Assembly: GCA_965208625.1 (NCBI GenBank)
Contig: OZ242348.1
Location: forward strand, 1,629,344-1,693,343
DNA: 64,000 nucleotides
Direction: 5' to 3'
Source: Dehalococcoidia bacterium
Lineage (GTDB): Bacteria; Chloroflexota; Dehalococcoidia; Lucifugimonadales; Australimonadaceae
The notes beneath the pieces are model-generated. The model was not told the origin of the DNA and did no database searches. It saw only the letters and a list, made by a program, of their open reading frames with translations. Position numbers and translations under genes: made by a program. Below are positions 14,792-43,971 of this stretch, one piece after another. Numbering within the stretch: the first letter of the stretch is position 1; every line of letters starts with the position of its first letter.

Positions 14792-15196
14792 ATGATGCGG
14801 GAGATTCTGCTGACTGTGGAAGGACAGCCACCGCTCAGAGACACCAGCCTGCCATCCTACAACCCGGACCACCCCCAGTATCCTCAGGCCGTTCGGCTGC
14901 GCGAGGCCGCAGCACAGGCGTTGGCCACACAGCCGGAGTGGGACCCGTACGAAGAGGGGTGGATTTCCCTTGCATTGACGGTTACGCAGCCCGCTCCCGA
15001 ATCCCCAATGATGAAGGCCCTGGGCGGGGTAGCGGATGCGTTGCAGTCCACCCCGTCGGACACTGACGTTCCCGGCGCTTCGCTCTACCTCGACCTATGG
15101 CAGATTCGTGTAGTGCGGTACGCTGCGCAGCAGGGAGATGCTCCGGCCTACAGCGTCAGCGTCAGGGTCATGGGGTACCCGTTCTCAGCAGGGTAA
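14792..15196 (+). CDS. Hypothetical protein, weakly RusA-like
   Basis: 134 aa. The layout 'LTVEGQPP...ISLALTV...MMKALGGVADAL...LYLDLWQIRVV' loosely parallels RusA resolvase blocks, but the acidic catalytic residues are not clearly conserved. Confidence 0.3.
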   Translation: MMREILLTVEGQPPLRDTSLPSYNPDHPQYPQAVRLREAAAQALATQPEWDPYEEGWISLALTVTQPAPESPMMKALGGVADALQSTPSDTDVPGASLYLDLWQIRVVRYAAQQGDAPAYSVSVRVMGYPFSAG

Positions 15197-15231
15197 CAGG
15201 CAGGGGAGCATATGGGCTGATAAGACGGAGG

Positions 15232-15263
15232 TAGCATGCCTCTGTTCGAGTTGAGGCATGCTA
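15232..15263 (+). terminator. Perfect 11-bp inverted repeat (TAGCATGCCTC-N10-GAGGCATGCTA), terminator or protein-binding palindrome
   Basis: Located 36 nt after the stop of 14792-15196. No clear T-tract follows. Confidence 0.35.
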
Positions 15264-15435
15264 GGCTGGTTCTACGGGTGCAGGAGGTCGCTGCCCTATG
15301 TCATATGTTCCAGTAGGGGGAAGATTCCGAGCCACTGGCTCATCCAACTAAGGGTTTCGCACAACCCGAAGCGGCCTGGGTCGAACTCTTTTCGTGAACC
15401 TTACGAATTGCAAAGAGGCCACATACATGGTCGCA

Positions 15436-15472
15436 CCGGGGGAGGACACCGGATCACGGTGCCCTCCCCCGG
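15436..15472 (-). terminator. Strong GC-rich stem-loop after the last minus-strand ICE gene
   Basis: CCGGGGGAGG-A-CACCG-GATCA-CGGTG-C-CCTCCCCCGG, 26 nt downstream of the stop at 15498. The following minus-strand sequence is moderately U-rich. Confidence 0.45.
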
Positions 15473-15497
15473 ACGTGGAATGCGCTGTCGTGCGACC

Positions 15498-16004
15498 CTA
15501 GAAGAGCCTCAGCGTCTGCTGCTGCGCCTGCCCAGTCTCCGCCCCGACGGCCGCCTGCTGCGCTGCCCCCTGCCGGCGCCGATCCCGCCGTCCCGCCGGG
15601 GGAGCGGGCCGTTCGTAGATGGGATGCTTCGGAGACTCCTCCCACCGGGCCCTGGCTCTCTCAACGACAGCCGAGACCTCCTGCGTGAGCCCCGGGAGGT
15701 CGTGGTCGTCGAAGGACTCGATGTGCGGGTCGGACGAGGACTGCTGCACTCCGATGGTGGCCCTGCCTTCCTTGATGGAGACGACCACCTTCAGTTCCTC
15801 CGGCACCTCGGTCCCTCTCCCGGCGTGCGGCCCCGCGGCCTCCGCGACACCTTCGGGATCCTGCCCGTCCTGTCCGGTCTCCTCTGTGGAGGTCCGCTCC
15901 TCGACAACCGCGTCAGCTGTGCCATCCGCTGCATCGTCGAAGGTGTTGTCGTCGGCGCTCGGGGCATCCGAGCGGCTTGTTTCCGTTCCGGTTTCGTCAG
16001 GCAT
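15498..16004 (-). CDS. Hypothetical protein (acidic N-terminus)
   Basis: 168-aa ORF co-directional with and tightly spaced to DUF2958. No recognisable motif. Confidence 0.5.
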   Translation of the reverse strand: MPDETGTETSRSDAPSADDNTFDDAADGTADAVVEERTSTEETGQDGQDPEGVAEAAGPHAGRGTEVPEELKVVVSIKEGRATIGVQQSSSDPHIESFDDHDLPGLTQEVSAVVERARARWEESPKHPIYERPAPPAGRRDRRRQGAAQQAAVGAETGQAQQQTLRLF

Positions 16005-16040
16005 GGTTGCTCCTCTCTTTGATGCTTCCCTGACTCCTGC

Positions 16041-16424
16041 TCAGGCCGCCAGCCTCGACTGCTTCCTGATCTCGCCGAGGGTCATCGGCTCCCAGTACAG
16101 GTCGCGCTCCACGGCGGGGACGTTGCCGAACACGGTCGCCTCCGCCAGCTCGGTGAGGTCGAAGTAGCCGAGCTCGGTCTCGAAGCCTTCGACGAGGCCG
16201 AAGCACGTTCCGGTCTCGGCCTCCCACTCGGTGATGTACCAGCGCCAGCCGATGTAGGGGCTGAACAGCTTCACCCTGGCGACGACGGCGTCGGGGTCGT
16301 CCGCGCCGTCGTTGGCATACAGGGGCGGGATGGTTTCGGCGAGCTCCTTCGTCATGAGCTTGTGTCTTCGGTACCTGTTGTGGTTGTCCTGCCAGATCGT
16401 GGTGGTTGCTTCTCGGTCGGACAT
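16041..16424 (-). CDS. DUF2958-family protein
   Basis: 'LYANDGADDPDAVVARVKLFSPYIGWRWYITEWEAETGTCFGLVEGFETELGYFDLTEL' matches the DUF2958 signature common on plasmids and ICEs. Confidence 0.75.
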   Translation of the reverse strand: MSDREATTTIWQDNHNRYRRHKLMTKELAETIPPLYANDGADDPDAVVARVKLFSPYIGWRWYITEWEAETGTCFGLVEGFETELGYFDLTELAEATVFGNVPAVERDLYWEPMTLGEIRKQSRLAA

Positions 16425-16472
16425 GATCTCTCTCTTTCTTCCTTCTCGGATGCGTTCGTTGAGCGTTGCTAC

Positions 16473-17288
16473 CTAGGCGGCCATCCCCAGGTTGGAGTCG
16501 GAGCCGATCACCCGCTCCACCGCCTCCGGCGTGGCATACGTGGGGGTGACCGTACCCAACTCCATGTCCAGGTAGAGGCCCATGAAGGGGCAGGCGCCCG
16601 CCACCATGCGGCGGACAACCTGTAGCACCAGGGACGCCATCATCTGGTTGATGGTCGGATCCTGGTCGGTGAGGTCGAGGGCGGCGGCGCAGTCCACGTC
16701 CGGGGGCGTGGTCGAGACCGCAGTCAGCAGGTCGGGGCGCTGCAGCGTGGGAGCGGGCAGCAGTCGGCAGGTCCCGTCAACGAAGGCGCGCTCGTCCCAG
16801 TCGACCTCGCCGGCGACATTCCCGACCAGGACCTGCCCCCAGTTGGTGTCGTTGCCCGCGTCGATGAGCCACCGGCGCGGGTCGCCCGGCAGGCACTCCG
16901 CCATCGCCCTACGTGCTGCCGCGTTGTCGGCGCAGCCGATCAGCAGGCAGCTCCCGTAGGCGGGGAGGCCGGGGTAGCGGGGTCCGTAGGGTCCGGAGTC
17001 GTCCTGTCGGAAGGGGTAGACCGAGTAGCCGACCGGACGCCGGTAGGCCCGCGCCAGCCGGTCGGCCAGCGCCTGGCTCTTGAACCTCCCCACGTCCTCT
17101 GTATAGAAATTCTGGCGGAGCAGGTTGTGGGGCTCCACCCGGTCGTGGTCGACCAGGACGATGGTAGCCTCCCGCCCCTGGAAGAGACGGCAGAGACCCT
17201 CGGCGACGAAGCCGCCGGTCCCGCCGCAGCCGACCACGGTGATCCAGGGATCGTCGAGCAGGAATGCGTTGTCGAGGTGGTAGGGCAT
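16473..17288 (-). CDS. ThiF/E1-like adenylyltransferase (PRTRC-system ThiF-family-like)
   Basis: Start at 'MPYHLDNAFLLDD'. Rossmann motif 'ITVVGCGGTGGFVAEGL...LVDHDRVEPHNLLRQNF'. The longer ORF N-terminus is Arg/Pro-rich and looks like shadow sequence. Confidence 0.8.
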   Translation of the reverse strand: MPYHLDNAFLLDDPWITVVGCGGTGGFVAEGLCRLFQGREATIVLVDHDRVEPHNLLRQNFYTEDVGRFKSQALADRLARAYRRPVGYSVYPFRQDDSGPYGPRYPGLPAYGSCLLIGCADNAAARRAMAECLPGDPRRWLIDAGNDTNWGQVLVGNVAGEVDWDERAFVDGTCRLLPAPTLQRPDLLTAVSTTPPDVDCAAALDLTDQDPTINQMMASLVLQVVRRMVAGACPFMGLYLDMELGTVTPTYATPEAVERVIGSDSNLGMAA

Positions 17289-17301
17289 GCTTGCCTCCTT
17301 G

Positions 17302-18006
17302 TCATTCGTTCGTTGTGTCGTGTTCGCCCACGAGCCGGACGCCCGGCTCCGGGCCGTCGAACACCTGCGGCCAATCCATCGGGGCGAAGTGGCCGTAGAC
17401 GCCGACCCGGAGACGCAGCTCGGGCCGGGGGTCATTGAGGCGTCCGGCGACGCCGTAGATGCGGAAGCCCTGCTCATCCCGGTCGTCGACGGCCGAGAAG
17501 AAGGCGGGAAGGCTTCCGTGCGAGTGGAACTCGGCGACCACCCCTGCGGGTGGCTGATACGCGAGTCTCGTTGCGGTCCCGGCCTGTGGCGGGACCACCA
17601 GCCGGTAGGCGCGCCCGTCCCAGCGCACGGCGAAGAGCCGCTCGGTGTCCGGGGCGTCCCGGAACCAGCGCAGCCCCACCGCGAGGAGGGCTGCAGGGAT
17701 GGGGCCGTGGTTGAGCTGCACCTTCCCGGCGACGGGAGCGAGCCCGCGCACCGTGCAGGGGGCGGCCAGAACACGCGCCGTCAGGTGAGCGCTCCGGGAC
17801 TGTACGTAGACGCCCCCCGCCCCCAGAACGTAGTCGTAGCCGATGCCGTGGGCCCCGGCCAACCCGGCGGGATGATTGACGAGGTAGCCCACCGGCCCCG
17901 CTCCGGCGCTAGAGGCGGTAGCCCCGTCTCCCCTCGGAGAACGCCATGGCGTGGGCAACCGTATATTGGGGAACCAGGTCCTCCACCGGGTATTCGTCCT
18001 TTCCAT
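17302..18006 (-). CDS. JAB/MPN-domain metallopeptidase (PRTRC protein A-like)
   Basis: JAMM motif 'EFHSHGSLPAFFSAVDDRDE'. The true start may be the GTG at 17892 (196 aa), 17 nt after the upstream stop. Confidence 0.75.
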   Translation of the reverse strand: MERTNTRWRTWFPNIRLPTPWRSPRGDGATASSAGAGPVGYLVNHPAGLAGAHGIGYDYVLGAGGVYVQSRSAHLTARVLAAPCTVRGLAPVAGKVQLNHGPIPAALLAVGLRWFRDAPDTERLFAVRWDGRAYRLVVPPQAGTATRLAYQPPAGVVAEFHSHGSLPAFFSAVDDRDEQGFRIYGVAGRLNDPRPELRLRVGVYGHFAPMDWPQVFDGPEPGVRLVGEHDTTNE

Positions 18007-18616
18007 CGAGCTCCTCCCATAGTGATTGCAGGTCGTCGGGGTGCTTCTGCGAGCGGTTCCGCGAGTCGCCGGTGAGCGAGAAGTAGGACTGGAAGAAGGA
18101 CTCGGGTATCAGTCCGACCTCCTCGGGGAACCGGTGGCTTCCGGGGCAGACCCTCCCGTCGTGGAAGACGTTGAAGGCCGGGGCCCGGAAGAGCTGCTGC
18201 TCAGCATCGGCCGGCCGGCTCATTGCGGCGTAGACCCAGGGTGCGCGGCCCGGCGAGCAGACGAAGACCAGCCCCGGCATCGGGAGCCGGAGCCGGGCGG
18301 GAGGCTTGAACGCCTCCCGTTGCAGGGCCACGGACCAGACTTGCGGCGGGCGCCAGAGGCCCACCACCTGCCCGGTCTCGCCCTGGTTCCACCAGAGGGC
18401 ATCCTCCGGCAGCAGTCCCGAGGAGAACCCCAGGTGCTGGGTGAGCACGCTCGCGATCCCGTCCGCCGAGACGGTCCTGACCCAGGCGGAGTCGTTCTCG
18501 AAGCCACGCAGGAGGATGGTCTCGTCGTAGACCTCCACCTGCACCCTGAGATCGTCCCTGGGCGCTTCCGTCGCGCCCGGCAGGGACCATCCGGTGATAT
18601 CGACGTCAACACTCAT
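17909..18616 (-). CDS. PRTRC protein B-like / predicted prokaryotic E2-like protein
   Basis: 235 aa. 'LRLPMPGLVFV...LFRAPAFNVFHDGRVCPGSHRFP' has a conserved-looking Cys. Its position between the F-like gene and JAB/E1 matches what I recall of the PRTRC cassette layout. Confidence 0.55.
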   Translation of the reverse strand: MSVDVDITGWSLPGATEAPRDDLRVQVEVYDETILLRGFENDSAWVRTVSADGIASVLTQHLGFSSGLLPEDALWWNQGETGQVVGLWRPPQVWSVALQREAFKPPARLRLPMPGLVFVCSPGRAPWVYAAMSRPADAEQQLFRAPAFNVFHDGRVCPGSHRFPEEVGLIPESFFQSYFSLTGDSRNRSQKHPDDLQSLWEELDGKDEYPVEDLVPQYTVAHAMAFSEGRRGYRL

Positions 18617-19445
18617 GTTCCTTCTCCTCCTTTCCTTCTTTACGGAGCCGCCCCAGGACGAACTCCAGCATCTCGGCGAAGCGGCCCGGAAGGTCTTCCT
18701 CCAGCCAGCCGGCCAACCGGCTCACCGCGTCCATGACGGCGCTGGCCTGCCGCCATTCCTCAGTGCCCTGTGCAATCAGGTCGTCGTCCCAGGGGTCGGC
18801 GAACCCGTCGTATTCCCCGTCCTCGTAGCTGGCGTCGAGGAAGAAGTTGCCGGTCTCGCCCCACACCCAGGAGCAGGCCTGGGCCGCCCCCTCGAAGCCG
18901 GTGTCCTTGAGCGCCCCCGTGAGGACGTCCAGCGGTATGCCGCCTCCGGGGATCCTGAGCAGGGTCTCCTGCGGGATAAGGGCGGCGGCCGATTCCAGCC
19001 ATGCCACCCGCAGCCCGTCGGGTTCCTCGTAGGAGGAATCGGGGGGCTTGACCAGCAGCACCATGGCCGAGAGCCCGTCGCGGTAGCGGTCCCACACGTC
19101 GTGCAGGTCGTCGTAGCCGAAGCCGAACAGTTCGAAGGGGATTCCCCTGCGGAGCCACGTCCACGGGGGCTCGTCCCCATCGTCGAGGTAGAAGTCGAAG
19201 AATGGGGCGTAGAGGGGGAAGTGCCGCTCCTGGAAGAGCCGGCCGAAGCGCTCCACCCTCGTGCGTACGTCGGGAGCCGCGAGCACCTCCTCGCCCTCAT
19301 CGGGGAAGAGGCGGTGCACCAGCCCCGCGAACCAGGCGTAGTCCTCTGCATAGCCGACCAGCGTCACCAGCTCCCGCAGCGACGGCGGACGCCGCAGGAG
19401 CAGTTTCGCCAGCCCGCTCAGCCTCGGCGGGGCCGCAGCTTCCAT
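18606..19445 (-). CDS. Acidic hypothetical protein of the PRTRC-like operon (possibly protein F-like)
   Basis: 279 aa, overlaps the downstream gene by 11 nt. Asp/Glu/Trp-rich. No motif assigned. Confidence 0.5.
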   Translation of the reverse strand: MEAAAPPRLSGLAKLLLRRPPSLRELVTLVGYAEDYAWFAGLVHRLFPDEGEEVLAAPDVRTRVERFGRLFQERHFPLYAPFFDFYLDDGDEPPWTWLRRGIPFELFGFGYDDLHDVWDRYRDGLSAMVLLVKPPDSSYEEPDGLRVAWLESAAALIPQETLLRIPGGGIPLDVLTGALKDTGFEGAAQACSWVWGETGNFFLDASYEDGEYDGFADPWDDDLIAQGTEEWRQASAVMDAVSRLAGWLEEDLPGRFAEMLEFVLGRLRKEGKEEKEHEC

Positions 19446-19648
19446 CGCAGCGCCGCCGCTAGGCGGCCCGTGGCCGACGCGTAGTCCTGGGCCTGCGCGC
19501 AGGCAAGCTCCACCTCACTCTGCCTGGCGGCCGCGGCGTCCAGGTCGAAGGAGCCGTCGAGCCGTGTGAGCTCCGCCGTGAGCTCGAGGATGCTGAGGCC
19601 TGCCGGCGGCGTCGCCGCCAGCAGACCCGCAAGTGTCCGGTTGTCCAT
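19418..19648 (-). CDS. Small hypothetical protein of the PRTRC-like operon
   Basis: 76 aa from the internal Met 'MDNRTLAGLLAATPPAGLSILELTAELTRLDG'. Overlaps the next gene by 28 nt. The upstream part of the ORF is Arg/Gly-rich shadow. Confidence 0.4.
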   Translation of the reverse strand: MDNRTLAGLLAATPPAGLSILELTAELTRLDGSFDLDAAAARQSEVELACAQAQDYASATGRLAAALRWKLRPRRG

Positions 19649-19659
19649 CGGGTGCCTCC

Positions 19660-19866
19660 CTAGCTCCGGGCGTCGGGGCAGGCGCCCTTGGTGCCCACCC
19701 GCCGCTGGAACTCGTAGATCGTGTCCTCGCCCCGCTTGGTCTCCTTCACCGAGGCGTTGGCGATCTCCCCGTAGAAGTCGGCGAGGGTGGCCTTGACCTG
19801 CTCGACGCTCATCTCGGGGTCCGGGTCGGGGAACTCGCGGTCGTCGTATACGAATACTCTTGCCAT
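19660..19866 (-). CDS. Ubiquitin-like beta-grasp protein (PRTRC protein C-like)
   Basis: 68 aa. 'RVFVYDDREFPDPDPEMSVEQVKATLADFYGEIANASVKETKRGEDTIYEFQRRVGTKG' matches my recollection of the PRTRC_C family, which ends GTKG. Here 7 extra residues (ACPDARS) follow. Confidence 0.65.
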   Translation of the reverse strand: MARVFVYDDREFPDPDPEMSVEQVKATLADFYGEIANASVKETKRGEDTIYEFQRRVGTKGACPDARS

Positions 19867-19914
19867 GGTTCATCTCCTTCTGATGGTTGCTGTCTCGCTG
19901 GCGTGCTGCGTTTG

Positions 19915-19951
19915 CGGGGAGGCCGCCGCTCCACTTGCGGCGGCCCTCCCG
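19915..19951 (-). terminator. GC-rich stem-loop directly after the SNF2 stop
   Basis: CGGGGAGGCCGCCGC-TCCACTT-GCGGCGGCCCTCCCG (two central mismatches), 4 nt from the TGA at 19956-19958. Confidence 0.35.
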
Positions 19952-19955
19952 TGCT

Positions 19956-22271
19956 TCATGCGGCCCGGCGACCCGCGCCGGCCGGCTCTGCCTCTCTCTC
20001 CTGCTCCATGCTGAGCGCCCACTCGAAGAGGGACGTGGAAGCGGGCCTGGGCTTCCGGCTGCGCCTGACGCCCTGCTCTCCCGCGAGGAACTCCGTCCAG
20101 GAGAACAGCGACTGCTGCTGCTCTCCGGCCTCGTCGCAGCCGTTGGCCATGACCAAGTCCACCGTCGGCACGATGCCGATGGGGTCGTCGTGGCCGTTCA
20201 CTTCGACCGCGACCGGTTCCGGCTCGGCCTGCACGAGGTCCCAGCCGTCGTCGACGAGATACTCTTCGGCGGTAGCCTCGGCGTCCCTGGCCTGGGCGAA
20301 CACCGACTCCACCGTCTCGGCCTCATCCTCGTCGCCGTTGACGATCTTGCGGGCCAACGCGAGCATGAGGTCGTCCCCGTCGTCGCCGTAGGCAGCCAGG
20401 CCGTCCTCCGGCAACTCGCCTTCCACCGCCAGCGAGCTCTGCAGCTTCTTCGCCACCAGCTTCAGGGCATCGGCCTGCAGGCTGTTCCTGTAGGCCATGA
20501 ACACGACCCGCACCGGACGGGTCTGGCCGATGCGCCACGAGCGGCGGGACGCCTGCCGCATCGTGTAGACGCTGTAGTCCGTCTCGTACCAGCAGATGGT
20601 CGGGAAGTCGATCAGGTCGAGTCCCGTCTGCACCAGCCTGGGATGGCAGATCAGCACGTCGAGTCCCTTCTCCACCTGCTCTGCGACCCACGCCTCGCGC
20701 CGGTCGGGCGCGACCGCGTCGGCCTTCATCACCGCCACCCTGAACCCGTGCCGTGTCAGGGTGTTCTCCATCCGCTCGGTGATGTCGCGCGTGCCGGTGT
20801 GCGTGGCGTACACCAGCACCCTGCGTCCTTCAAGGCGCTCGGCCGCCACGAGGTCGACGAGCGCCTGCTCCTTGGGGTAGACCCGCTCCTCGGAGAGCGG
20901 AGCGACCCCCACGATGGGCACCCCCGTCGTCGGGTCGAAGACGGTCTCACCCCGCGTGCAGCCGTCCGGGTAGGCGAGCAGCGTCTGCAGGTACGTGCCG
21001 AGCAGCCGCTTGGAGCCGGTGGCCAGCGCCTCTCCCAACGCCTTCTTCAAGGCCCCGTAGACCGTGTCGTAGGCCGAGCGCTGGGAGAGCCCGGTGTGGT
21101 CGGGCTCGGAGTCCATGGTCGATAGCAGCACGCGCTCCTCGTACGGGGGAAGCCCGGACGCCACGTCCGAGAGCCGCAGGAAGATGGAGTTCCCGATCAG
21201 GTGGAAGAGCGCCGAGGGAGCGAGACCCGGACGCTCGCGCACCACCCTGCGGTAGCGGCGTCTGCGGCTGTTGCGCCCGTCCTCGACCGAGGGATCGTCG
21301 CCATCCTTGTAGACCGTCTCCTCGGTGAAGCCGTAGCGGCTGATCCAGCGCCCCTCCTCCGAGTGTCCGAACTCGGTGCGAATCTCCGGGGAGAACCGGT
21401 AGAGGAGGTGGAAAAGGGTGCTGGCGTACCCGCCCATCAGCGTGCCGGAGAGCGTGAGCGACCGACCGCACGCCTCCGCGAGCACGCCCGCGGCGATGCC
21501 CTGCGCCGAGCCGCGCGCCTTGAACTCATGCACCTCGTCGCCGATGAAGAGGTCGAAGAATCCCTTCATCCGGTGCTTGACGTAGTCGGCGAGCGGGTAG
21601 CGGCGGGGGCCGGTGTTGTCCGCCTGCCAGAGCGGGGAGCGGCAGACGTCGCAGATGCGCCGCTTCCGGGAGAGGTCTCCCAGGGAGAGCGGCACGCCCT
21701 CCCTGTCGAGGACCTGCTCCGCGCAGGCGGGACAGCAAGGGACTCGGAAGGGGTCACCCGTCTCCTCGTCCCGGATCAGCCTTCCGTTCGCTACGGCCCA
21801 CCGCTCATTGACGGCGGGCTGCCAGCGGTACGAGAGCTTCGCTCGCTCGCGCGACATGACCGCGAAGAGCGGGGACGAGCCCGGGAATAGGCGGAGGCGT
21901 TCGAGGTCGGTGATGGAGGAAACGATGGCGGCCTTCGCGCCGGGAATCGTCTCCTCCACCTCGCGCTTCCACTTGCGCACGAGGTGCGGCGGGCAGAGGA
22001 CCAATACTCTCCTGAAGCCCGCCGCGTGGGCAGCGCTCGTTGCGATGAACGTCTTTCCGGTGCCCATCTCGCCGACGACGGTCGTGCCCTGGTGGGCACC
22101 GAGCGAGAGAGCCGCGCCGCGTATGGCGTCGGCCTGCGCGCCGAGCGGGTTGCGCAGGAGCGGGGGTAGTTGGACGGCCTGATCGGACGGCCGGTAGAGG
22201 GGCGGGTACGACTCCACCACCCGCTGGGCGATGGAGTCCTTGAACGTGTCGATGAAGGTCCCGAGGTTCAT
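19956..22271 (-). CDS. SNF2-family helicase with inserted Zn-ribbon
   Basis: Motif I 'GEMGTGKT', motif II 'IGDEVHEFK', motif VI 'QASRRSWRIGQTRPV', insert 'CCPACAEQ...CDVCRSPLW'. Start at 'MNLGTFIDTF' with upstream GGAG. Confidence 0.85.
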   Translation of the reverse strand: MNLGTFIDTFKDSIAQRVVESYPPLYRPSDQAVQLPPLLRNPLGAQADAIRGAALSLGAHQGTTVVGEMGTGKTFIATSAAHAAGFRRVLVLCPPHLVRKWKREVEETIPGAKAAIVSSITDLERLRLFPGSSPLFAVMSRERAKLSYRWQPAVNERWAVANGRLIRDEETGDPFRVPCCPACAEQVLDREGVPLSLGDLSRKRRICDVCRSPLWQADNTGPRRYPLADYVKHRMKGFFDLFIGDEVHEFKARGSAQGIAAGVLAEACGRSLTLSGTLMGGYASTLFHLLYRFSPEIRTEFGHSEEGRWISRYGFTEETVYKDGDDPSVEDGRNSRRRRYRRVVRERPGLAPSALFHLIGNSIFLRLSDVASGLPPYEERVLLSTMDSEPDHTGLSQRSAYDTVYGALKKALGEALATGSKRLLGTYLQTLLAYPDGCTRGETVFDPTTGVPIVGVAPLSEERVYPKEQALVDLVAAERLEGRRVLVYATHTGTRDITERMENTLTRHGFRVAVMKADAVAPDRREAWVAEQVEKGLDVLICHPRLVQTGLDLIDFPTICWYETDYSVYTMRQASRRSWRIGQTRPVRVVFMAYRNSLQADALKLVAKKLQSSLAVEGELPEDGLAAYGDDGDDLMLALARKIVNGDEDEAETVESVFAQARDAEATAEEYLVDDGWDLVQAEPEPVAVEVNGHDDPIGIVPTVDLVMANGCDEAGEQQQSLFSWTEFLAGEQGVRRSRKPRPASTSLFEWALSMEQEREAEPAGAGRRAA

Positions 22272-22324
22272 GGGGTCGTGCTCCTTTCCTGTATGAGAGG
22301 TGTCGTGGGACGCGGGGACTGAGG

Positions 22325-22360
22325 ACGGGGCCACCGCCCATGTGGGAGATTCGGCCCCGT
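22325..22360 (-). terminator. Stem-loop ACGGGGCC-N20-GGCCCCGT
   Basis: Lies in the intergenic gap between 22409 (stop) and 22271 (start). Shares GGCCCCGTG with the loops at 23863 and 26258. Confidence 0.3.
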
Positions 22361-22408
22361 GGCGCTCCTCGTGCGGAGGGAGGCTTCGAGCCTGCCGACG
22401 TCCGGCTG

Positions 22409-22786
22409 CTAAGCGCCGACCTCCCGGCGGGCGCCCTCGAGGACGTTCCTTGCCTCGCTGACGAGGTTGCGGGCGTGGTAGAGGCGGTGGATGTACCGGT
22501 CCAGCCGCCGGGTCCGCGCTCGTGATTGGGCTGGGGTCAGCGTCGCCGGCTTGGCGAGCGCCTCACTTGCCTCCTTGATGAGCGTCTCGATGTAGCTCTC
22601 TGCGGGCATCTCCGGTGTCCGGCGTATCTGGACGACCATCGGTTCCGTGTCGTCGCACTCCGGGCAGAGTCCCGAGCCGACGGCGATGGTGCCGTACTCG
22701 TTCACATGGGCGGTCGTTGGCTGCCGGTGTTCGCAGACCAGGCAGACGAGGTCTGCGTCAATGCTCTCTTCGGGTTCGAAGGTCAT
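22409..22786 (-). CDS. Small Zn-ribbon protein with helical C-terminus (hypothetical)
   Basis: 125 aa from 'MTFEPEESIDADLVCLVCEH...GLCPECDD'. CxxC...CxxC. Confidence 0.55.
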   Translation of the reverse strand: MTFEPEESIDADLVCLVCEHRQPTTAHVNEYGTIAVGSGLCPECDDTEPMVVQIRRTPEMPAESYIETLIKEASEALAKPATLTPAQSRARTRRLDRYIHRLYHARNLVSEARNVLEGARREVGA

Positions 22787-22851
22787 GGGTCCGTCCTCCT
22801 TGGTGGTGCATCCGGGGTCGTCTGGTGCGAGAGTCCTCAGGCTGGCGTTGG

Positions 22852-23187
22852 CTAGGCCTCCTCCAGGTCCTCCATCCGCTGCAGGGTCATGACGATCTCC
22901 TGCAGGTTGCCGCGCAGGCGAGCGAGCTTCGTGGGGTCCGGCGGCATCCGCTTCATCTGGCTCTCCAGGCTGATGCGCTCGCCGATGAGCCAGGCGCGCA
23001 GCGCCTTCCATCGCTCCTCGTCCGGCTGGTTGAAGCTCATGTCCATGGCCACGGCCTCGTCGCATTCCGGGCAGTGCCGCCCGTAGATGTATGTGCCGGT
23101 GCCGTCGCGCCGGACGTACAGGGTCGTCTCGACCTCGTACCCGCACTGCGGGCATTCCGCGGTTGCGGGATATTCGTTGAGTGTCAT
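22852..23187 (-). CDS. Small Zn-ribbon protein with helical C-terminus (hypothetical)
   Basis: 111 aa from 'MTLNEYPATAECPQCGYE...RHCPECDE'. Same architecture as 22409-22786. Confidence 0.55.
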   Translation of the reverse strand: MTLNEYPATAECPQCGYEVETTLYVRRDGTGTYIYGRHCPECDEAVAMDMSFNQPDEERWKALRAWLIGERISLESQMKRMPPDPTKLARLRGNLQEIVMTLQRMEDLEEA

Positions 23188-23189
23188 GG

Positions 23190-23477
23190 TCACGATGCGC
23201 TCCTCTCTTCCTTCGGCTCGCCGCACCGGACGCAGTGGCGGACATCCACGCCCGCGACTTGGTGGGCATGGCCGTCCCTGCAGGCCAGTGGCTGCACTGC
23301 CGCCACCTGGCCGCCGATGCCGCTCCATGCGCTGCGGTCGCCCGCCTCGTATGAGTAGAAGCCGCAGCCCCGCGCGCAGCGCAGGTCGACGCCGGTCAGT
23401 TCGTCGTCCTCGACGACCTCCTCCAGCGTGAATTCCCTCCCGCCGCAGGCGGGACAGGTGATGCTCTTCAGTACCAT
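23190..23477 (-). CDS. Small multi-Cys Zn-ribbon protein (hypothetical)
   Basis: 95 aa. 'CPACGG...CARGCG...CRDGH...CVRCGE'. Ends 2 nt before the start of the next gene. Confidence 0.5.
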   Translation of the reverse strand: MVLKSITCPACGGREFTLEEVVEDDELTGVDLRCARGCGFYSYEAGDRSAWSGIGGQVAAVQPLACRDGHAHQVAGVDVRHCVRCGEPKEERSAS

Positions 23478-23534
23478 CGGTCTCCTCCTTTGTAGTGTTT
23501 AGATCCCTCCGTGGAGGGCTCCGTCTGGTGATCG

Positions 23535-23813
23535 CTACGCCGCCGCGGGGAGCGGTTCCATGAGGGACAGAGAACCGTCGGTCCCTGCTTCCTGTGGATG
23601 GGAAGATCGGGCTGCTTGGGCTGCCCTCTCCTCCAGCTTCGCGGCCCGGTAGCAGCCGCTCTCCGTGTGGTACGAGCGCACCGGCGAGGCGGCGATCCGC
23701 CCGTCGACGACGTCGACCGAACTGGTCTGCGCGTACGGCTGGCCGGGGAGGATCGGCTCTTCGCACCAGTCGCAGGTCAGGGGAAAGAGCGTGAGTGTGG
23801 GGTTGGCTTTCAT
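23535..23813 (-). CDS. Small Cys-containing protein (hypothetical)
   Basis: 92 aa. 'LTCDWCEEPI...YHTESGCY'. Confidence 0.45.
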   Translation of the reverse strand: MKANPTLTLFPLTCDWCEEPILPGQPYAQTSSVDVVDGRIAASPVRSYHTESGCYRAAKLEERAAQAARSSHPQEAGTDGSLSLMEPLPAAA

Positions 23814-23921: not shown

Positions 23922-24965
23922 CTATGCGGCGATGTCGGTGATCCCGCCGTCGTCGAGGCCGAGGGCGACCACGGTGGTCCGCAGCCGCTCCCGCCACGTC
24001 TCGGTCTCCGGCGTCTCCTCGACCAGGACCATCTCCTTGGTGGTACGGCCCTTGACGAGGATGCGCCGTCCCTCGGCCTCCAGGCAGAGGTTGTCGAGGA
24101 AGCCCGCGGCCACCAGCATCGCCATGTGCCCGCGGCGCAGCGGCATCAGCGGGCGAGTGCGGGCGTCCCCCCTCGGCCAGAGGGAGTCGTTGATCTCGGC
24201 GCTGACCCAGAGGCCGGAGCGCCGCGCCTCCGACGCCGCCGCGATGGGGTCGACGGTGCGCGTCGAGAAGAGCACGTCGCCCGAGGGCAACGGCGGGATG
24301 CTGAACTCCCTGTAGGGAGAGGCCGGCAGTTCATCCAGCGCTCCGGCCGCCCACTCCCGCACCCGCATCTCCGCGTGCACGTCGGTGTGCGGCTCCGTCC
24401 TGCGGTGCCCGATGAGCACCACCTGGTCGAACGCCTCCCGCTCAGGGCTGGGGAATGCCCAGCACCGGAGCCGCTGGTAGTGGGAGGATAGGTACTTCGC
24501 CGAGACCTCCAGCCGCTGGCGGGGCACGACGAAGACGAGCACGCCGTTGTCAGCGAGGTAGCGGGTGGCGTGCATCAGGAAGGCGTGCTCCACCCGCTTG
24601 CCGCCTCCGGAGTCCCAATCGTAGGGGGGATTGAGATAGAGCAGGCCGAACGCGCGGTTGGCGATGGAAGTCTGGAAGAGGTCGGAGGCGAGCGCCCGGT
24701 GCAGGCGCTCCCCGGCCTCGGCGGCGCGGTCTCGATGGAGCTCCACGCCGTATGCCTCGATGGGCATGGTATCGGGCTGGGCGATGCGCTCTGCCAGTTG
24801 TGCGGCGGCCTCGCCCGCGCCGCAGCAGGGGTCGAGGATGCGCAGCGTCTCCCGCCCCCGCCTGGGGCCGTAGGAGACGGGGGCGTAGATCAGTCCGGCG
24901 ATCAGGTCGATGACGCGGGGCGGCGTCGGGTAGAACCCGCCCTTCGCCTGTCCTGCAAGTCTCAT
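23922..24965 (-). CDS. Orphan N6-adenine-type DNA methyltransferase
   Basis: Start 'MRLAGQAKGGFYPTPP'. Motif I 'ILDPCCGAGE', motif IV 'LNPPYD'. No adjacent restriction endonuclease. Confidence 0.75.
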   Translation of the reverse strand: MRLAGQAKGGFYPTPPRVIDLIAGLIYAPVSYGPRRGRETLRILDPCCGAGEAAAQLAERIAQPDTMPIEAYGVELHRDRAAEAGERLHRALASDLFQTSIANRAFGLLYLNPPYDWDSGGGKRVEHAFLMHATRYLADNGVLVFVVPRQRLEVSAKYLSSHYQRLRCWAFPSPEREAFDQVVLIGHRRTEPHTDVHAEMRVREWAAGALDELPASPYREFSIPPLPSGDVLFSTRTVDPIAAASEARRSGLWVSAEINDSLWPRGDARTRPLMPLRRGHMAMLVAAGFLDNLCLEAEGRRILVKGRTTKEMVLVEETPETETWRERLRTTVVALGLDDGGITDIAA

Positions 24966-25654
24966 GCTGCTGCTCCTAGTGCGTAGTTGTGGGTGCGTGG
25001 GTCTGCGATGTCCTTGTTGGGAGAGTCCCCCTCCGGCAGGACGAGGACGCCCTCGGTCACCGCGCGGGAGAGGTCCTCCCGCAGCGATTCGGCATCTGGC
25101 CTGCAGACGTGGGCAGTGATGCCCGCAGACTGCAGCGGGGCAATCTCCCCGCTCGCCAGCCCCCGCCGCCAGAGCCAATCGGCCCAGGTGTGGTGCAGCG
25201 GCAGCGGGCTGCGGCGGTCGAGGAAGCGGTGGTGGAGCGCAGGCACGTCGTCGCCCTCATGGGCCAATAGGAGGAAGCAATCGTGCCCTGAGGCGAACTC
25301 GGCCCACTTCGTGTAGACGAGCGCGTGCCAGCCGCCACTCGCGGGCAGGCGGGCAATCTTCGTCGTCCAGCTGCCTATGGTCTCGCCTGGGATGACGCAC
25401 CTCTGGTATCCCCCGCTGAGCGCCATCCCGTCCGCGCCCCTGATGATGTGCGCGGGGTCGGGCGGCTGCTTCAGCATGGAGGCCCAGATTGCCTTCAGCG
25501 ATGTCTGGGCGCCGACCATGGAGAGGAACCAGAGGCCGTGGCTCTCCGGGTCCCTGGCGAAGGCGTCGGCGGTGGCGGAGAAGCCCCCAGCGGTGATCGT
25601 GTACAGATCCGGTTCCAAGGTGGCGCCGGACACGGCTGGATGTGTGTTCTGCAT
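24962..25654 (-). CDS. Hypothetical protein, translationally coupled to the MTase
   Basis: 230-aa ORF whose stop overlaps the MTase ATG (ATGA). No motif recognised. Confidence 0.5.
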   Translation of the reverse strand: MQNTHPAVSGATLEPDLYTITAGGFSATADAFARDPESHGLWFLSMVGAQTSLKAIWASMLKQPPDPAHIIRGADGMALSGGYQRCVIPGETIGSWTTKIARLPASGGWHALVYTKWAEFASGHDCFLLLAHEGDDVPALHHRFLDRRSPLPLHHTWADWLWRRGLASGEIAPLQSAGITAHVCRPDAESLREDLSRAVTEGVLVLPEGDSPNKDIADPRTHNYALGAAA

Positions 25655-25697: not shown

Positions 25698-26219
25698 TCA
25701 GAGCTCGCAGGGGATGATGCCCCTGTCCTTGAAGCTGACGAACCCCTCTACGCCGATGACGATGTGGTCGAGGAGGTCGAGATCGAGCAGTCGCGCGCCC
25801 CGGTAGACCTCCCTGGTCAGGGCGACGTCCGCCGCGCTGGGTTCGGGATCGCCGGACGGGTGGTTGTGGACCATGATGAGGTGGGGAACGGCCTCGGCGA
25901 CGGCGGGGCGCAGCACCTCTGCGATCCGCACCATCACCTGGCTGATATTGCCCTGGTAGATGACGCGCTGGCCGACGAGCCGGTTCTTGGCGTCGAGCAG
26001 GAGCACCCTCAACTGCTCCTGTGCGAGCGCGGCCATCTCCCGTCCCAGCAGTCTCGGGACGTCGTCGGAGGTGGAGAGGACGGGCGGAGACGCGGGCCGT
26101 TCGGACTTTGTCGCGACGCCGTAGCGGACGGTGAGTTCGCCGAGGAGGAGCATGTTGGAGCGCAGGGCGTCCAGCAGCGCCTCTCCGGGCGGAATGAGCA
26201 TCGGGTTGGCGGTGGTCAT
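25698..26219 (-). CDS. radC: RadC-like JAB-domain protein
   Basis: 'LLDAKNRLVGQRVIYQGNISQVMVRIAEVLRPAV...LIMVHNHPSGDPEPSAADVALT' is the RadC signature. Confidence 0.85.
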   Translation of the reverse strand: MTTANPMLIPPGEALLDALRSNMLLLGELTVRYGVATKSERPASPPVLSTSDDVPRLLGREMAALAQEQLRVLLLDAKNRLVGQRVIYQGNISQVMVRIAEVLRPAVAEAVPHLIMVHNHPSGDPEPSAADVALTREVYRGARLLDLDLLDHIVIGVEGFVSFKDRGIIPCEL

Positions 26220-26257
26220 GGGGACTCCTTCGAGTGAGGATGGGTGAAAGAAGGGGA

Positions 26258-26289
26258 ACGGGGCCGCCCCGGAATCGGAGCGGCCCCGT
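26258..26289 (-). terminator. Stem-loop ACGGGGCCGC-N12-GCGGCCCCGT
   Basis: Lies between the SSB stop (26332) and the RadC start (26219). Followed by GATGCG on the plus strand. Confidence 0.35.
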
Positions 26290-26331
26290 GATGCGCCCGC
26301 GCATGCTGACGTCGGTGTGTGCCGTGAAGGG

Positions 26332-26742
26332 CTAGAAGGGGTCGGCCCCGGCGGCGACCGGTTGGGGTTCGACGGCCTCTGCCACGGCGTGGCCGTTCTC
26401 GTCCGCCGTGCGCTCACCGTTGCGCGAGTCGAGGAAGACGACCTCCGAGGCGTGCACCTCGGTGCGGTGGCGCCGCTGGCCGTCCTCGGTCTCGTAGCTG
26501 TTCTGCGCCAGCGAGCCGCTCACGTAGATGCGGTCGCCCTTGTTGACATACGTGTCGACCGCCTCGGCCTGCTTCGCGAAGCAGACGACGTTGTGCCAGT
26601 CCGTCTCCGTCTCGCCGCTCTGGCGGCGGCGGTCCGTCGCCATGCGGAACGTGGTGACGGCGGTGCCGCTGGGGGCGTAGCGCATCTCCGGTTCCGTGCC
26701 GACGCGTCCGAGCAGTTCTACCCTGTTGATGGTCCTTGCCAT
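26332..26742 (-). CDS. ssb: Single-stranded DNA-binding protein
   Basis: 'MARTINRVELLGRVGTEPEMRYAPSGTAVTTFRMAT...WHNVVCFAKQAE' OB fold. C-terminal tip '...ADPF'. Confidence 0.85.
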   Translation of the reverse strand: MARTINRVELLGRVGTEPEMRYAPSGTAVTTFRMATDRRRQSGETETDWHNVVCFAKQAEAVDTYVNKGDRIYVSGSLAQNSYETEDGQRRHRTEVHASEVVFLDSRNGERTADENGHAVAEAVEPQPVAAGADPF

Positions 26743-26883
26743 GATGTGCCTCCTTGCACTGGTGACGTGACGCGGCCCTGCCGCGCCCGGTGTGATGAGC
26801 CGCGGGGCCACATCTCCCATTGGGGAGCCGGTCCCGTACGCGCTCCCGGCGGGAGCGGCGAAGTCATGCGGAGCCGTGCTCCG

Positions 26884-27202: not shown

Positions 27203-28006
27203 TCAGGCGGCCATCGGCAGGTCGGTCTCACCCGCAGGCGGGACTTCGCCAGGCTGGGTCTCACCCACGGGCGAGAATTCGTCATGCCGGGTCACGGCCT
27301 GGGCGTCCCTCGCCTGCTGGACCTTCCGCGCCGCGCCCTCGACGAGCCGGGTCAGCTCGGATACCGGGAGGGCGTCGAGGTCCTTGCCCGTCCTGGCCCG
27401 CACGGCGGCGCGCATCTGCGCCTCGTCGAACCCCTGGGCGACGCCGAGCTCCAGCAGTGTCCTGCGCAGCGGCGGCGCGAGCGCCTCCGCCACTCCGTCG
27501 CCGTGCAGAGCGTTGCCGAACTGATCGCCGAAGCCGCGCAGCGCCCGCTTCAACCCGTCAGTGACAGCGCCCTTGTATGCCGTCTCATGCCCCTCGGCGT
27601 TGTCGTCGGCTACGGTGTGGAAGCCCACGTCCGTGCGCGGCGGCGCGCCGGGAACGGTGACCCGCACTGTCGCGGCGTACGAGCAGGAGCGATGCACCTG
27701 CCCGGTCTCGGAGTCCACGCGCTCGGTCGCCCACTGCGAGACCTCGCCGACGACCTCGTAGCCCCAGCCGCCGTATCCGAAGATGCGGTTCGCTTGCTCG
27801 ATGGCGGTGCGCCCCTCGATGTAGGCGTACGTCTGCCCCTTCCGGCCCTTGCGGTAGGAGACCAGCCCCGGGTCGAGGGACTTCTCCAGCTCCGAGAGGA
27901 CCTTCGGCGGGAGGCTGTCCCACAGGAGGTCGTGCGGGCTGTCCGGAATGGCGTCAACGTGGACGCCGTTGTTCGATCCGTCGTGTACCGTTCCGTTCTG
28001 TGTCAT
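27203..28006 (-). CDS. Rad52/Rad22-family single-strand annealing protein
   Basis: 'YIEGRTAIEQANRIFGYGGWGYEV...ETAYKGAVTDGLKRALRGFGDQFGN'. Start at 'MTQNGTVHDG'. Confidence 0.75.
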   Translation of the reverse strand: MTQNGTVHDGSNNGVHVDAIPDSPHDLLWDSLPPKVLSELEKSLDPGLVSYRKGRKGQTYAYIEGRTAIEQANRIFGYGGWGYEVVGEVSQWATERVDSETGQVHRSCSYAATVRVTVPGAPPRTDVGFHTVADDNAEGHETAYKGAVTDGLKRALRGFGDQFGNALHGDGVAEALAPPLRRTLLELGVAQGFDEAQMRAAVRARTGKDLDALPVSELTRLVEGAARKVQQARDAQAVTRHDEFSPVGETQPGEVPPAGETDLPMAA

Positions 28007-28140
28007 TGCCAACTCCTTCGATGATGTGATGTGTTCCGTGCGATGGGGCGCGGGCTCCCGTGGGAGGACCCGTGGGCGGGGACGGCCCGGCGGTTGTCGG
28101 GCATGCGGCCTCCTTCGTGGTGGGGTTGCGGGAATCGGGA

Positions 28141-28189
28141 ACGCGGAGCGACCGCTCACCCCTCGTGGGAGAGAGTGGTCGCTCCGCGT
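28141..28189 (-). terminator. 13-bp inverted repeat ACGCGGAGCGACC-N23-GGTCGCTCCGCGT
   Basis: Sits 24 nt after the primase stop (28213), upstream of the Rad52-like start. Confidence 0.35.
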
Positions 28190-28212
28190 TGCAGGGGATG
28201 GGGTTGGGGCGG

Positions 28213-29259
28213 CTACGCAGCGGTGCGAGCGGCCTGCACGAGCAGTCGCCAGAACGTTGCGTAGCCGCGGGGGCAGGTGGCGAGGTCTGCCACATCGGCG
28301 GCCTCGCGCGGGAGGTTGACGACGGCGGCCCTGTGCCCGAGCAGTTCCGTGAATCGCTCGGAGGCCGCCTGACCCGCCGCGTCCGCATCGAACGCGAGGA
28401 AGATGCGGGAGCAACCCGACAGGGTTGCCACGATGCGCTCGGCGCCCTGCGTGCCGAGCGCGGCGCAGGCGGGCACGCCCCACTGGGCGAGCGCCAGCCA
28501 GTCGAACAGTCCCTCGGCGAGCACCGCCCACGGCGGTGCGGTGCCGAGCCGCCCGGTCCCGAGCACGGGCTTGGGACCGGGCAGCGTCTGGAACCGGGGC
28601 GAACGCTCCGGTTCCACAGCGCGTCCGGCGAGCCACCGGGCCCGCCCGGCGGCAATCAGGTCGGGGACAACCACCATCCCGGCGAACCGCTCACCGTGCT
28701 CGGTGAACAGCCCTGAGGATCTCAGCCGGTCCCGTGGGAACCCGATTGCCGTGAGATGGGCGCGCAGCCCGCCGCCCGGCGCGTAGCCGAGGCCGAGGCG
28801 GGCTGCCGTTTCGGGGCGGATGCCCCGCGAGCGCAGGTACGACTGCGCTACGGGGCTGTGCCGCAGCCGGCCGGCGTAGAACCGGGCGGCTGCAGTCAGC
28901 AGGGCGGGATCGGGCGGTGGGGAAACGGTGCGCCGGGGCGGGGACGCCGCCCTCGGACGCACGAAGGCGGCGTTGGGAGCGCCCTTCCCAACGCCGCCGT
29001 TCAGACGCCGAATCGCCTCAGGGAGGTCCAGGCTCTCGACGCGACGCACGAAATCTAGCACGTCTCCGCCCTCGCCGCATCCAAAGCAGAACCACCGCTC
29101 CGAGTCGGCATACACGGTGAAGCTCCCTTCGACCTCCTCGTGGAACGGGCACACCCCCTGGCGCACCCTGCCCCGCCCGCGCAGTTGCACGCCGGAGGCC
29201 TCCACGACGTCGCCCAACGGATTGCGGCGCTTCAGGTCTGGCAGGTCGACCATCGTCAT
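28213..29259 (-). CDS. DnaG-like DNA primase (CHC2 zinc finger + Toprim)
   Basis: 'CPFHEEVEGSFTVY...WFCFGCGEGGDVLDF' and Toprim 'IFLAFDADAAGQAA'. Start 'MTMVDLPDLK'. Confidence 0.8.
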   Translation of the reverse strand: MTMVDLPDLKRRNPLGDVVEASGVQLRGRGRVRQGVCPFHEEVEGSFTVYADSERWFCFGCGEGGDVLDFVRRVESLDLPEAIRRLNGGVGKGAPNAAFVRPRAASPPRRTVSPPPDPALLTAAARFYAGRLRHSPVAQSYLRSRGIRPETAARLGLGYAPGGGLRAHLTAIGFPRDRLRSSGLFTEHGERFAGMVVVPDLIAAGRARWLAGRAVEPERSPRFQTLPGPKPVLGTGRLGTAPPWAVLAEGLFDWLALAQWGVPACAALGTQGAERIVATLSGCSRIFLAFDADAAGQAASERFTELLGHRAAVVNLPREAADVADLATCPRGYATFWRLLVQAARTAA

Positions 29260-29720
29260 GACGCCCCTCCCGCCAGCGGGCGCAGCCCGCGCAGGCTCCG
29301 CCGAGAGACGGTCTGCCCCGGCTGCCAGCGCATGCCGAGCACAGCCAGCACTTCGAGCATCCCGTCCTGATCCGTGGGTGCGAGCACCGCGGCCCGTCCG
29401 GTTCCCGCGCTGTACACGAGGGCGCTCCGGTCCGGGAACCGCCGCTTCGCGAGGCTCACCCACTCGCCGTACGCCCACCGCGTTTCGTTCGCCGGCGCGC
29501 TTGCAGTGTCGGCGTTTGCGAGGCTTGCCAGTGCCCCGTCGAGATCTCCCGCCTGCCGCTGACGCCGCGCTTCGTGCACGGCCTGTGCCACGCTCTGCTC
29601 GCGCTTCCCGCCGATGCTGGTGAGCAGCGCGTCGATCACCCGGCTTGCCAGCTCCTCCAGCCTCCGCTCGGGTCGCTCCGTCACCATCCGGTCGTTGAGT
29701 CTCACCGTTCCCGTCGTCAT
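29256..29720 (-). CDS. Hypothetical protein, translationally coupled to the primase
   Basis: 154 aa. Its stop overlaps the primase ATG. Confidence 0.5.
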   Translation of the reverse strand: MTTGTVRLNDRMVTERPERRLEELASRVIDALLTSIGGKREQSVAQAVHEARRQRQAGDLDGALASLANADTASAPANETRWAYGEWVSLAKRRFPDRSALVYSAGTGRAAVLAPTDQDGMLEVLAVLGMRWQPGQTVSRRSLRGLRPLAGGAS

Positions 29721-43824: not shown

Positions 43825-43971
43825 CGACGAGGCCCCGCCCGGACAGGCGCAACGGCGGCATTGGCGGGGCCTGAAACAGCATGAAGCCGCACGGCGCTCG
43901 CCCCTCCCGTCCGCGCCGGCGGCACATCCACCGACCCGTAGCGAGAGGCCCACGACCCTGTAGACACACTG

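Follow-up and report, generated by a model that had tools for sequence, protein, structure and literature searches.

The 6d family, predicted in 2006 as one of the bacterial operon families built around a ubiquitin-like protein (Ubl), combines an E1, an E2-like protein, and a JAB peptidase that has a JAB-N domain with a small Ubl whose C-terminal Gly is conserved (PMC1779556). In the same analysis, a strictly conserved Arg and Trp were described in the JAB-N domain, and a conserved Cys and an invariant downstream His, with the classical His absent, in the E2-like protein; between the Ubl and the E2, the operon encodes an alpha-helical protein that evolves fast and has conserved charged residues (PMC1779556). 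The hosts given there are proteobacteria, Bacillus, Anabaena, and Bacteroides, and the operons are often located on mobile elements (PMC1779556). The subject of this report is a cassette of this kind in a 64,000-nucleotide stretch of a Dehalococcoidia bacterium genome (contig OZ242348.1; hereafter, the window). There, six closely packed or overlapping minus-strand genes, all in the same direction, occupy positions 16473-19866 within an integrative and conjugative element (ICE).

Such cassettes are also annotated under the TIGRFAM acronym PRTRC, which stands for ParB-Related, ThiF-Related Cassette. A 2025 preprint (bioRxiv 10.64898/2025.12.11.693706) misreads this acronym as "Pilus Retraction/Contraction system". 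According to the initial annotation of the window, the function of PRTRC is not known to have been shown experimentally. The literature that we searched is in line with this, as it contained no experimental work on 6d or PRTRC and used PRTRC as an annotation label only. The canonical gene order, found in Caballeronia pNK84, is SNF2 ... ParB-E-C-F-B-A-ThiF.

CBASS and Bil are antiviral systems. A 2024 preprint from the Corbett laboratory lists the bacterial families in which conjugation has been shown, and these are type II CBASS, Bil, and Bub. The JAB deubiquitinase of Bil was shown to pre-process its Ubl between Gly97 and Ala98 (PMC10557695).

We consider, with a probability of about 0.65, that the cassette in the window is a functional ubiquitin-like protein-conjugation module of the 6d/PRTRC-like kind, without ParB, in the conserved backbone of a Dehalococcoidia ICE family. 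This ParB-less lineage has retained every catalytic residue and forms a fixed part of the backbone of a very successful ICE family (255 related loci; up to four copies per genome), whose hosts belong to an uncultured lineage of a monoderm phylum. Specific predictions follow from the comparison, namely cleavage of the Ubl between G61 and A62, catalytic cysteines C200 in the E1 and C157 in the E2-like protein, and a partner role for a 76-aa protein (p76) that is often fused to the Ubl.

Family assignment of the cassette and its relatives

All six minus-strand open reading frames (ORFs) of the initial annotation are present, and the motifs quoted there (FHDGRVCPGSH, HSHG...SAVD, and GCGGTGG) were all found (Table 1). 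Family hidden Markov models (HMMs) hit the Ubl, E2-like, JAB, and E1 proteins, which bears out the proposed cassette of PRTRC or Iyer-Burroughs-Aravind type. In the HMM check that had been set beforehand, the small protein matched Prok_Ub and the 235-aa protein matched Prok-E2_D and PRTRC_B. The adjoining DUF2958 and SNF2-like helicase genes are likewise as described.

The more specific claim, a match to the TIGRFAM PRTRC cassette, holds only in part. Measured against the curated NCBIfam cut-offs, the Ubl passes as PRTRC protein C (TIGR03738; 49.1 bits, cut-off 45.95), proteins B, A, and ThiF fall below, and E, F, and ParB are undetectable. Reciprocal tblastn of canonical PRTRC C, B, A, and ThiF against the window gave E values of 1e-7, 7e-9, 1e-6, and 2e-17, respectively. 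For PRTRC E and F, no NCBIfam match was found among the window proteins even at E<=10. No ParB domain was detected by HMM in any of the ICE ORFs scanned, and with the PRTRC ParB of Caballeronia as query, tblastn matched the window only at E>0.6 and the 80 related loci described below not at all; the observation that no ParB is visible in the element is thus confirmed by both methods. Judged by its sequence, the cassette is of the 6d/PRTRC-like kind but divergent, lacks ParB, and is no strict PRTRC equivalog.

Like 6d, the window encodes a small Ubl with a conserved Gly in its C-terminal region, an E2-like protein with Cys157, no HPN His, and an invariant H192, and a JAB (with intact JAMM) and a rhodanese-free E1 as separate, adjacent genes. 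The acidic 279-aa protein (p279) lies between the Ubl and the E2, as in 6d, and is predicted to be mostly helical in a low-confidence model. Unlike 6d, the window carries one more gene, that of p76, after the Ubl and before the acidic protein; in many relatives, p76 is fused to the Ubl. The Dehalococcoidia host is a further difference, and no invariant Arg or Trp was recovered in the N-terminal part of the JAB, where the alignment of five sequences is poor. With canonical PRTRC, the window shares the order C-(F position)-B-A-ThiF, an SNF2-family gene nearby, and a GxKG motif followed by a variable tail. It differs from canonical PRTRC by the absence of ParB, by E and F being undetectable with HMM, tblastn, or hhalign, and by B, A, and ThiF scores of about half of the curated cut-offs at 23-31% identity.

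The six-gene ParB-less layout is also found on Pseudanabaena pPg_05, in the form Ubl(69)-p83-p254-E2(235)-JAB-ThiF, with an SSB (single-stranded DNA-binding protein) gene nearby. On a Candidatus Chlorohelix plasmid, the locus begins at the record origin, and only the acidic-protein, E2, JAB, and ThiF genes are seen there, with a helicase and a methyltransferase nearby. A C-terminal motif of p279 is common to the window, Pseudanabaena, and Chlorohelix. Unlike the cassette in the window, both of these cassettes are plasmid-borne, and they have about 30% identity to it. The initial annotation had regarded the ParB-less layout and the non-proteobacterial setting as unusual. Both views largely fall away, since a cyanobacterial plasmid carries the same layout, the Chlorohelix plasmid its distal part, and metagenomic contigs a version with poly-Ubl, and 6d was already placed in Bacillus, Anabaena, and Bacteroides in 2006 (PMC1779556).

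A species-representative genome collection contains 255 relatives of the E2-like protein, and the loci of the best 80 of these were compared. All 80 come from Dehalococcoidia, Chloroflexi, or SAR202 metagenome-assembled genomes and have 78-95% identity; the ICE family is often present in 2-4 copies per genome (loci L001-L080, e.g. OZ244792.1 and the CBDCTU01 contigs). The order methyltransferase-SNF2-Ubl-p76-p279-E2-JAB-E1-DUF2958-p168 is syntenic in essentially all of the best 80, and DUF2958 is syntenic in nearly all related loci. Because the whole block is syntenic in these loci, the cassette is assigned to the ICE backbone and not to variable cargo.

One Dehalococcoidia homologue (P0042) is named "PRTRC system protein C" by NCBI. 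The nearest plasmid-borne relatives of the E1 (about 30% identity) are found on cyanobacterial plasmids, on the Candidatus Chlorohelix plasmid, and in a Subdoligranulum record, and the PRTRC E1s of Burkholderiaceae rank behind them. A SNF2 or helicase gene adjoins the cassette in Caballeronia and Chlorohelix too. In addition, 12 IMG/VR contigs carry E2_D relatives, and on most of these, Ubls were detected that end at the Gly, have a tail, or are fused. As the Dehalococcoidia host is uncultured, the cyanobacterial plasmids and the Burkholderiaceae PRTRC systems are better experimental entry points.

The C-terminus of the Ubl and the candidate active sites

The Ubl carries seven residues after its GTKG motif, and the initial annotation took this tail to be unusual and a free terminal GTKG to be typical of the family. 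Among 75 Dehalococcoidia relatives, the Ubl body averages 92% identity to the window protein, and residues 52-61 (EFQRRVGTKG) are invariant in all 75. What follows GTKG is highly variable, with 60 distinct tails of 3, 4, 5, 7, 8, 9, 10, or 15 aa, and Ala at P1' (68/75) is their sole regularity. At the DNA level, the tail is a variable spacer that runs into the Shine-Dalgarno sequence of p76, (A)GGAGG, which explains the semi-conserved "..ARS" ending. Residues G58, K60, and G61 are invariant in 19 diverse homologues, and canonical PRTRC_C proteins from 26 Burkholderiaceae loci have an invariant RAAGAKG that is followed by variable tails of 3-13 aa.

When cluster representatives were searched exhaustively with the Ubl by HMMER, 442 clusters were obtained, and the best 150 were classed by C-terminus. 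The sequence stops at the Gly in six of them, runs on for 1-15 aa in 29, and continues for more than 15 aa in 93; 9 are poly-Ubl, and 13 are fragments. The seven extra residues in the window are real and tails are the family rule, while a free terminal GTKG is not typical, given that only six of these representatives end at the Gly and that PRTRC_C of Burkholderiaceae is tailed. Both traits that were first judged odd, the missing ParB and the tailed Ubl, are normal for the 6d/PRTRC-like family.

Among the relatives of the cassette, it is common to find the Ubl in precursor form, fused to p76, or encoded as poly-Ubl. Of the 93 long extensions, at least 26 are p76-like by iterated HMM, and in a close Chloroflexi relative (L024:236-) the Ubl and p76 are encoded in one frame. 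In some other relatives, the GxKG precedes C-terminal domains unrelated to p76, Zn ribbons among them; fused relatives with p76-like or other C-terminal domains include P0126, P0131, P0141, P0142, and P0148. The poly-Ubl proteins (P0121, P0128, P0137, P0168, P0179, P0201, P0206, P0241, and P0267; also L115:8001-8861) consist of 4-5 Ubl units joined head to tail. Every unit closes with GTKG, or with GSKG in P0201, and at least one further residue caps the protein. The repeats of eukaryotic polyubiquitin are likewise arranged head to tail with one or more extra cap residues. One poly-Ubl belongs to a cassette with the order polyUbl - p132 - p482 - Prok-E2_D - Prok-JAB protein - ThiF, on metagenomic contigs with many small ORFs. 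The Ubl homologues keep a conserved Gly in front of their variable C-termini. An invariant GxKG followed by unconstrained sequence, fusions, or repeats is the pattern expected of a precursor that is cut after the Gly.

Across homologues of the cassette proteins with 23-35% identity, the catalytic residues are invariant. In 31 homologues of the E2-like protein, including canonical PRTRC_B (21-30% identity), these are P146, N149, G154, C157, G159, and H192, whereas the position of the HPN His is occupied by Ala147. An hhalign alignment places PAFNVFHDGRVC on HPNINSNGSIC of human UBE2D2, so that N149 pairs with N77 and C157 with C85 at equal spacing. Cys157, Asn149, and the downstream His192 are thus candidates for the active site. 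No sequence relatives of the E2-like protein were found in the PDB. Foldseek matches of its model, such as those to PCNA and FABP, were discarded as noise (TM about 0.1).

The JAMM set of the JAB (E122, H161, H163, S171, and D174) is invariant in five distant homologues. Its translation probably starts at GTG 17892 (196 aa) and not at the ORF start, because this codon has GGAG upstream and closely follows the stop codon of the E2, and because the Chlorohelix homologue has its start at the equivalent position. The E1 starts at ATG 17288 within a longer ORF (16473-17774) and consists of a ThiF domain only, without rhodanese. Invariant in four distant E1 homologues are GxGGTG (20-25), R34, D47/D49, N55/R58/Q59, K70, D121, and C200. 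The E1 and the JAB (17302-17892) have one lysine each (0.4-0.5%), the lowest content among the soluble ICE proteins. A reading of this as avoidance of self-modification was rejected, since the whole ICE proteome is Lys-poor (1-2%), and the low lysine content may reflect GC bias only.

From these residues and precedents, a pathway can be proposed. The Ubl would be made as a 68-aa precursor, and the JAMM peptidase would cut between Gly61 and Ala62 to expose ...GTKG-COOH. Such JAB-dependent maturation, already suggested in the initial annotation, is supported by the invariant motif with its free tail, by the fused and poly-Ubl relatives, and by the Bil precedent. The ThiF-type E1 would then adenylate Gly61 with ATP and probably form a thioester on Cys200, as its invariant residues suggest. 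Next, the Ubl would be handed to Cys157 of the E2-like protein, where Asn149 and His192 would complete a UBC-like active site, and transferred to lysines of target proteins. p279 and/or p76 may serve as specificity or partner factors, and the same JAMM enzyme could undo the modification.

The weakest step of the proposal is the biological role. The initial annotation had suggested that the cassette may act early after transfer, for instance by modifying recipient or element proteins, or in anti-defence. A role in the element's own DNA processing or in its establishment after transfer, as opposed to host cargo, appears most likely because of the fixed place of the cassette in its gene block and the recurring helicase, methyltransferase, or SSB neighbours in distant relatives. 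A broader version is doubtful, and we offer it tentatively. According to this version, PRTRC/6d Ubls would generally be precursors (tailed, fused, or poly-Ubl) from which the JAB frees the Ubl and a p76 partner, and the ICE system would tag DNA-processing proteins of the ICE or the recipient after transfer and so promote establishment. If true, this would be a bacterial parallel to the eukaryotic ubiquitin genes, and the system would serve the life cycle of a mobile element, unlike Bil and CBASS with their antiphage roles.

Weighing of the proposed conjugation module against other explanations

Several results weigh against a functional conjugation module as proposed here. Although PRTRC is the best-scoring family for each protein, B reaches 63.6 of 131.45 bits, A 54.2 of 101.8 bits, and ThiF 91.6 of 144.75 bits. 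For the E2-like protein, the hhalign comparison with UBE2D2 has an E value of 0.002 but a probability of only 13%, the AlphaFold2 (AF2) model has a predicted local distance difference test (pLDDT) score of 64.2 (core 65-90), and a Foldseek search of this model against the PDB gave no match with E<0.2. For the Ubl, hhalign against ubiquitin was not significant (E=0.069); hhalign against ThiS and a PDB sequence search with the Ubl profile also gave nothing significant. The E2 and beta-grasp folds are thus predicted from family HMMs, from conserved motifs, and from the 2006 analysis. Moreover, the Pseudanabaena Ubl stops exactly at the Gly (GPKG) and has no tail, so processing is not universal, and the tail in the window could be mere spacer read-through with no meaning beyond the need for its removal. 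Further points on this side are that searches of Pfam, NCBIfam (with matches allowed up to E=10), PADLOC, and PHROG gave nothing for p76 and p279, and that no E3 and no target have been identified for the cassette.

A defence function could also be envisaged, in which the ICE carries a Bil-like anti-phage system that attaches the Ubl to structural proteins of an infecting phage. The same four activities (Ubl, E2, JAB deubiquitinase, and E1) are encoded as separate proteins in both cases, the G61/A62 junction matches the Gly/Ala site at which Bil processes its Ubl, and defence systems are frequent on mobile elements. The CBASS Cap2 "E1-E2" models of PADLOC match the N-terminus of the E1, but the match is restricted to the Rossmann part, a generic nucleotide-binding region. 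No PADLOC model matches the Ubl, E2, or JAB, no CD-NTase was detected, and PADLOC and PHROG had nothing informative on the five proteins other than the E1. The E2 and that of Bil are of different families, and relatives of the cassette are found on plasmids and on IMG/VR viral contigs themselves. Unlike variable cargo or a defence island, the cassette holds a fixed backbone position from SNF2 to DUF2958 in the best 80 loci. We regard a defence function as unlikely.

A maintenance or addiction module, which would stabilise the element by opposing modifying and de-modifying activities in this cassette and its ParB-linked relatives, is distinctly unlikely. The idea was raised speculatively in 2006 (PMC1779556) and is implied by the name "ParB-related"; canonical systems do adjoin a dedicated ParB, and the ICE family reaches 2-4 copies per genome. 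However, the clade in question has neither ParB nor a partition ATPase, an integrated ICE needs no partition, and no toxin-like component was recognised. We consider it very improbable that the cassette serves a sulfur-carrier or other small-molecule pathway of the ThiS/MoaD/CysO type, in which the E1 would thiocarboxylate the Ubl and the JAMM enzyme would release the product, as Mec+ acts on CysO. A dedicated E2-like protein with invariant Cys, Asn, and His does not fit such a pathway, nor does a Ubl that ends in GTKG and not in GG; poly-Ubl and fusion precursors would be senseless for a cofactor pathway, the block lacks genes for a rhodanese, a cysteine desulfurase, or a biosynthetic enzyme, and the setting is a mobile-element backbone. 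What speaks for it is that the E1 is a ThiF-family protein and matches the ThiF and MoeB equivalog models weakly (15-51 bits vs cut-offs of 150-650), and that JAMM/E1/beta-grasp trios are established in biosynthesis (see also PMC1779556).

Accessory proteins and the host element

Table 1. Positions of the cassette genes and of neighbouring features of the ICE in the window
Feature	Position	Strand	Family matches and remarks
Ubl (pro-Ubl, 68 aa)	19660-19866	minus	Prok_Ub E=5e-15; PRTRC_C 49.1 bits
Predicted mature Ubl, residues 1-61 ending GTKG	19684-19866	minus	
Seven-residue Ubl tail, ACPDARS	19663-19683	minus	
p76 (76 aa)	19418-19648	minus	No family assignment
p279 (279 aa), acidic, isoelectric point 4.4	18606-19445	minus	No family match; position of PRTRC protein F
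E2-like protein (235 aa)	17909-18616	minus	Prok-E2_D E=1.9e-17; PRTRC_B E=1.6e-17
JAB/JAMM metallopeptidase, PRTRC_A-like	17302-18006 (ORF)	minus	PRTRC_A E=1.3e-14; Prok-JAB 25.2 bits (cut-off 25)
ThiF-type E1 (271 aa)	16473-17288	minus	PRTRC_ThiF E=4.8e-26; ThiF E=3.7e-13
DUF2958 protein	16041-16424	minus	PF11171 E=2.4e-7; directly downstream of cassette
p168, acidic	15498-16004	minus	No family match; conserved C-terminal ...QTLRLF
SNF2-like helicase	19956-22334	minus	ResIII, Helicase_C; directly upstream of cassette
Small Zn-ribbon-like ORFs	22409-23813	minus	Paired CxxC motifs
DUF6094 methyltransferase	23922-25178	minus	
RadC	25698-26417	minus	RadC-like JAB domain E=1e-34
SSB	26332-26820	minus	
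Rad52/22-family protein	Between primase and SSB; long ORFs of this gene and the primase within 27203-29811	minus	
DnaG-like primase	28213-29811	minus	
Large serine recombinase	43881-46313	plus	

The p76 gene is present in 75 of the 80 related loci (69-99% identity), and its ATG is preceded by the Shine-Dalgarno sequence GGGAGG. Adjacency in these loci and frequent fusion tie p76 to the Ubl. For p279, 829 homologues were found, and none of the 120 listed has a Pfam domain. Within the clade, p279 has many invariant D/E/W/R residues, and it is mostly helical in a low-confidence prediction. Weak homology to Pseudanabaena p254 (hhalign E=1.4e-4) covers the motif ETGNFFLDASYED..W..WLEED, and that to the Chlorohelix protein is marginal (E=0.044); the C-terminal motif shared by p279 and these plasmid equivalents is TxN..LD.sYE..W..WL..D. 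Compared to PRTRC_F, p279 gave no significant hhalign match (E=0.32), though the "LDxxYE" motif aligns, and p279 is a positional equivalent of PRTRC_F only. The AF2 model of p279 (pLDDT 54.5, shallow alignment) was unusable and no fold search was made with it, while a PDB sequence search with the p279 profile gave nothing significant. A resemblance of the p279 C-terminus to AcrF2 (E=0.8) was not significant and was discarded.

Downstream of DUF2958, p168 is found in most of the 80 loci (45-72% identity). In most of 72 homologues, its C-terminus reads ...Q(Q/E)TLRLF, and some end in PRLF or PRLL, while canonical PRTRC_E ends in ...GTNLASLFD. Both C-termini presumably resemble beta-clamp-binding peptides of the QLxLF type. 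Hhalign comparisons of p76 and p168 with PRTRC_E were not significant. In P0199, the Ubl is preceded by a fused p168-like segment, similar to the canonical E-C order. p168 may be a functional analogue of PRTRC protein E.

The ICE is about 32 kb long and extends from about 14 kb to 46.3 kb of the window. Its GC content is 68-70%, compared with 61-64% in the left flank and 64-69% in the right flank, and the flanking genes have ordinary metabolic and transport functions. The plus strand encodes TrbL/VirB6, a type IV secretion system pilin, a PrgI-like protein, VirB4, a coupling protein, a Replic_Relax protein, and the serine recombinase; with VirB4, TrbL/VirB6, the pilin, the coupling protein, Replic_Relax, and the recombinase all present, the initial placement of the cassette inside an ICE is well founded. 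The co-directional minus-strand block has the order primase, Rad52/22, SSB, RadC, DUF6094, Zn-ribbon ORFs, SNF2, cassette, DUF2958, and p168. A consensus scan for promoters and terminators in 15000-22600 found nothing on the minus strand.

The content of SSB, primase, single-strand annealing protein, RadC, and an orphan methyltransferase resembles that described for plasmid leading regions (see PMC11541004). The cassette may thus lie in the leading region of the ICE. The RadC-like protein next to SSB is the second JAB-fold protein of the ICE block. Two of the Zn-ribbon-like ORFs (22409-23813) are apparently paralogous, and none of these ORFs has a family match; Zn-ribbon domains also appear as fusion partners in some distant Ubl homologues. 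The ORFs of the Rad52/22 protein and the primase (27203-29811, minus strand) overlap by about 420 nt in different frames. Because the Rad52 domain begins only at residue 247, the true start of the Rad52/22 protein is probably well downstream.

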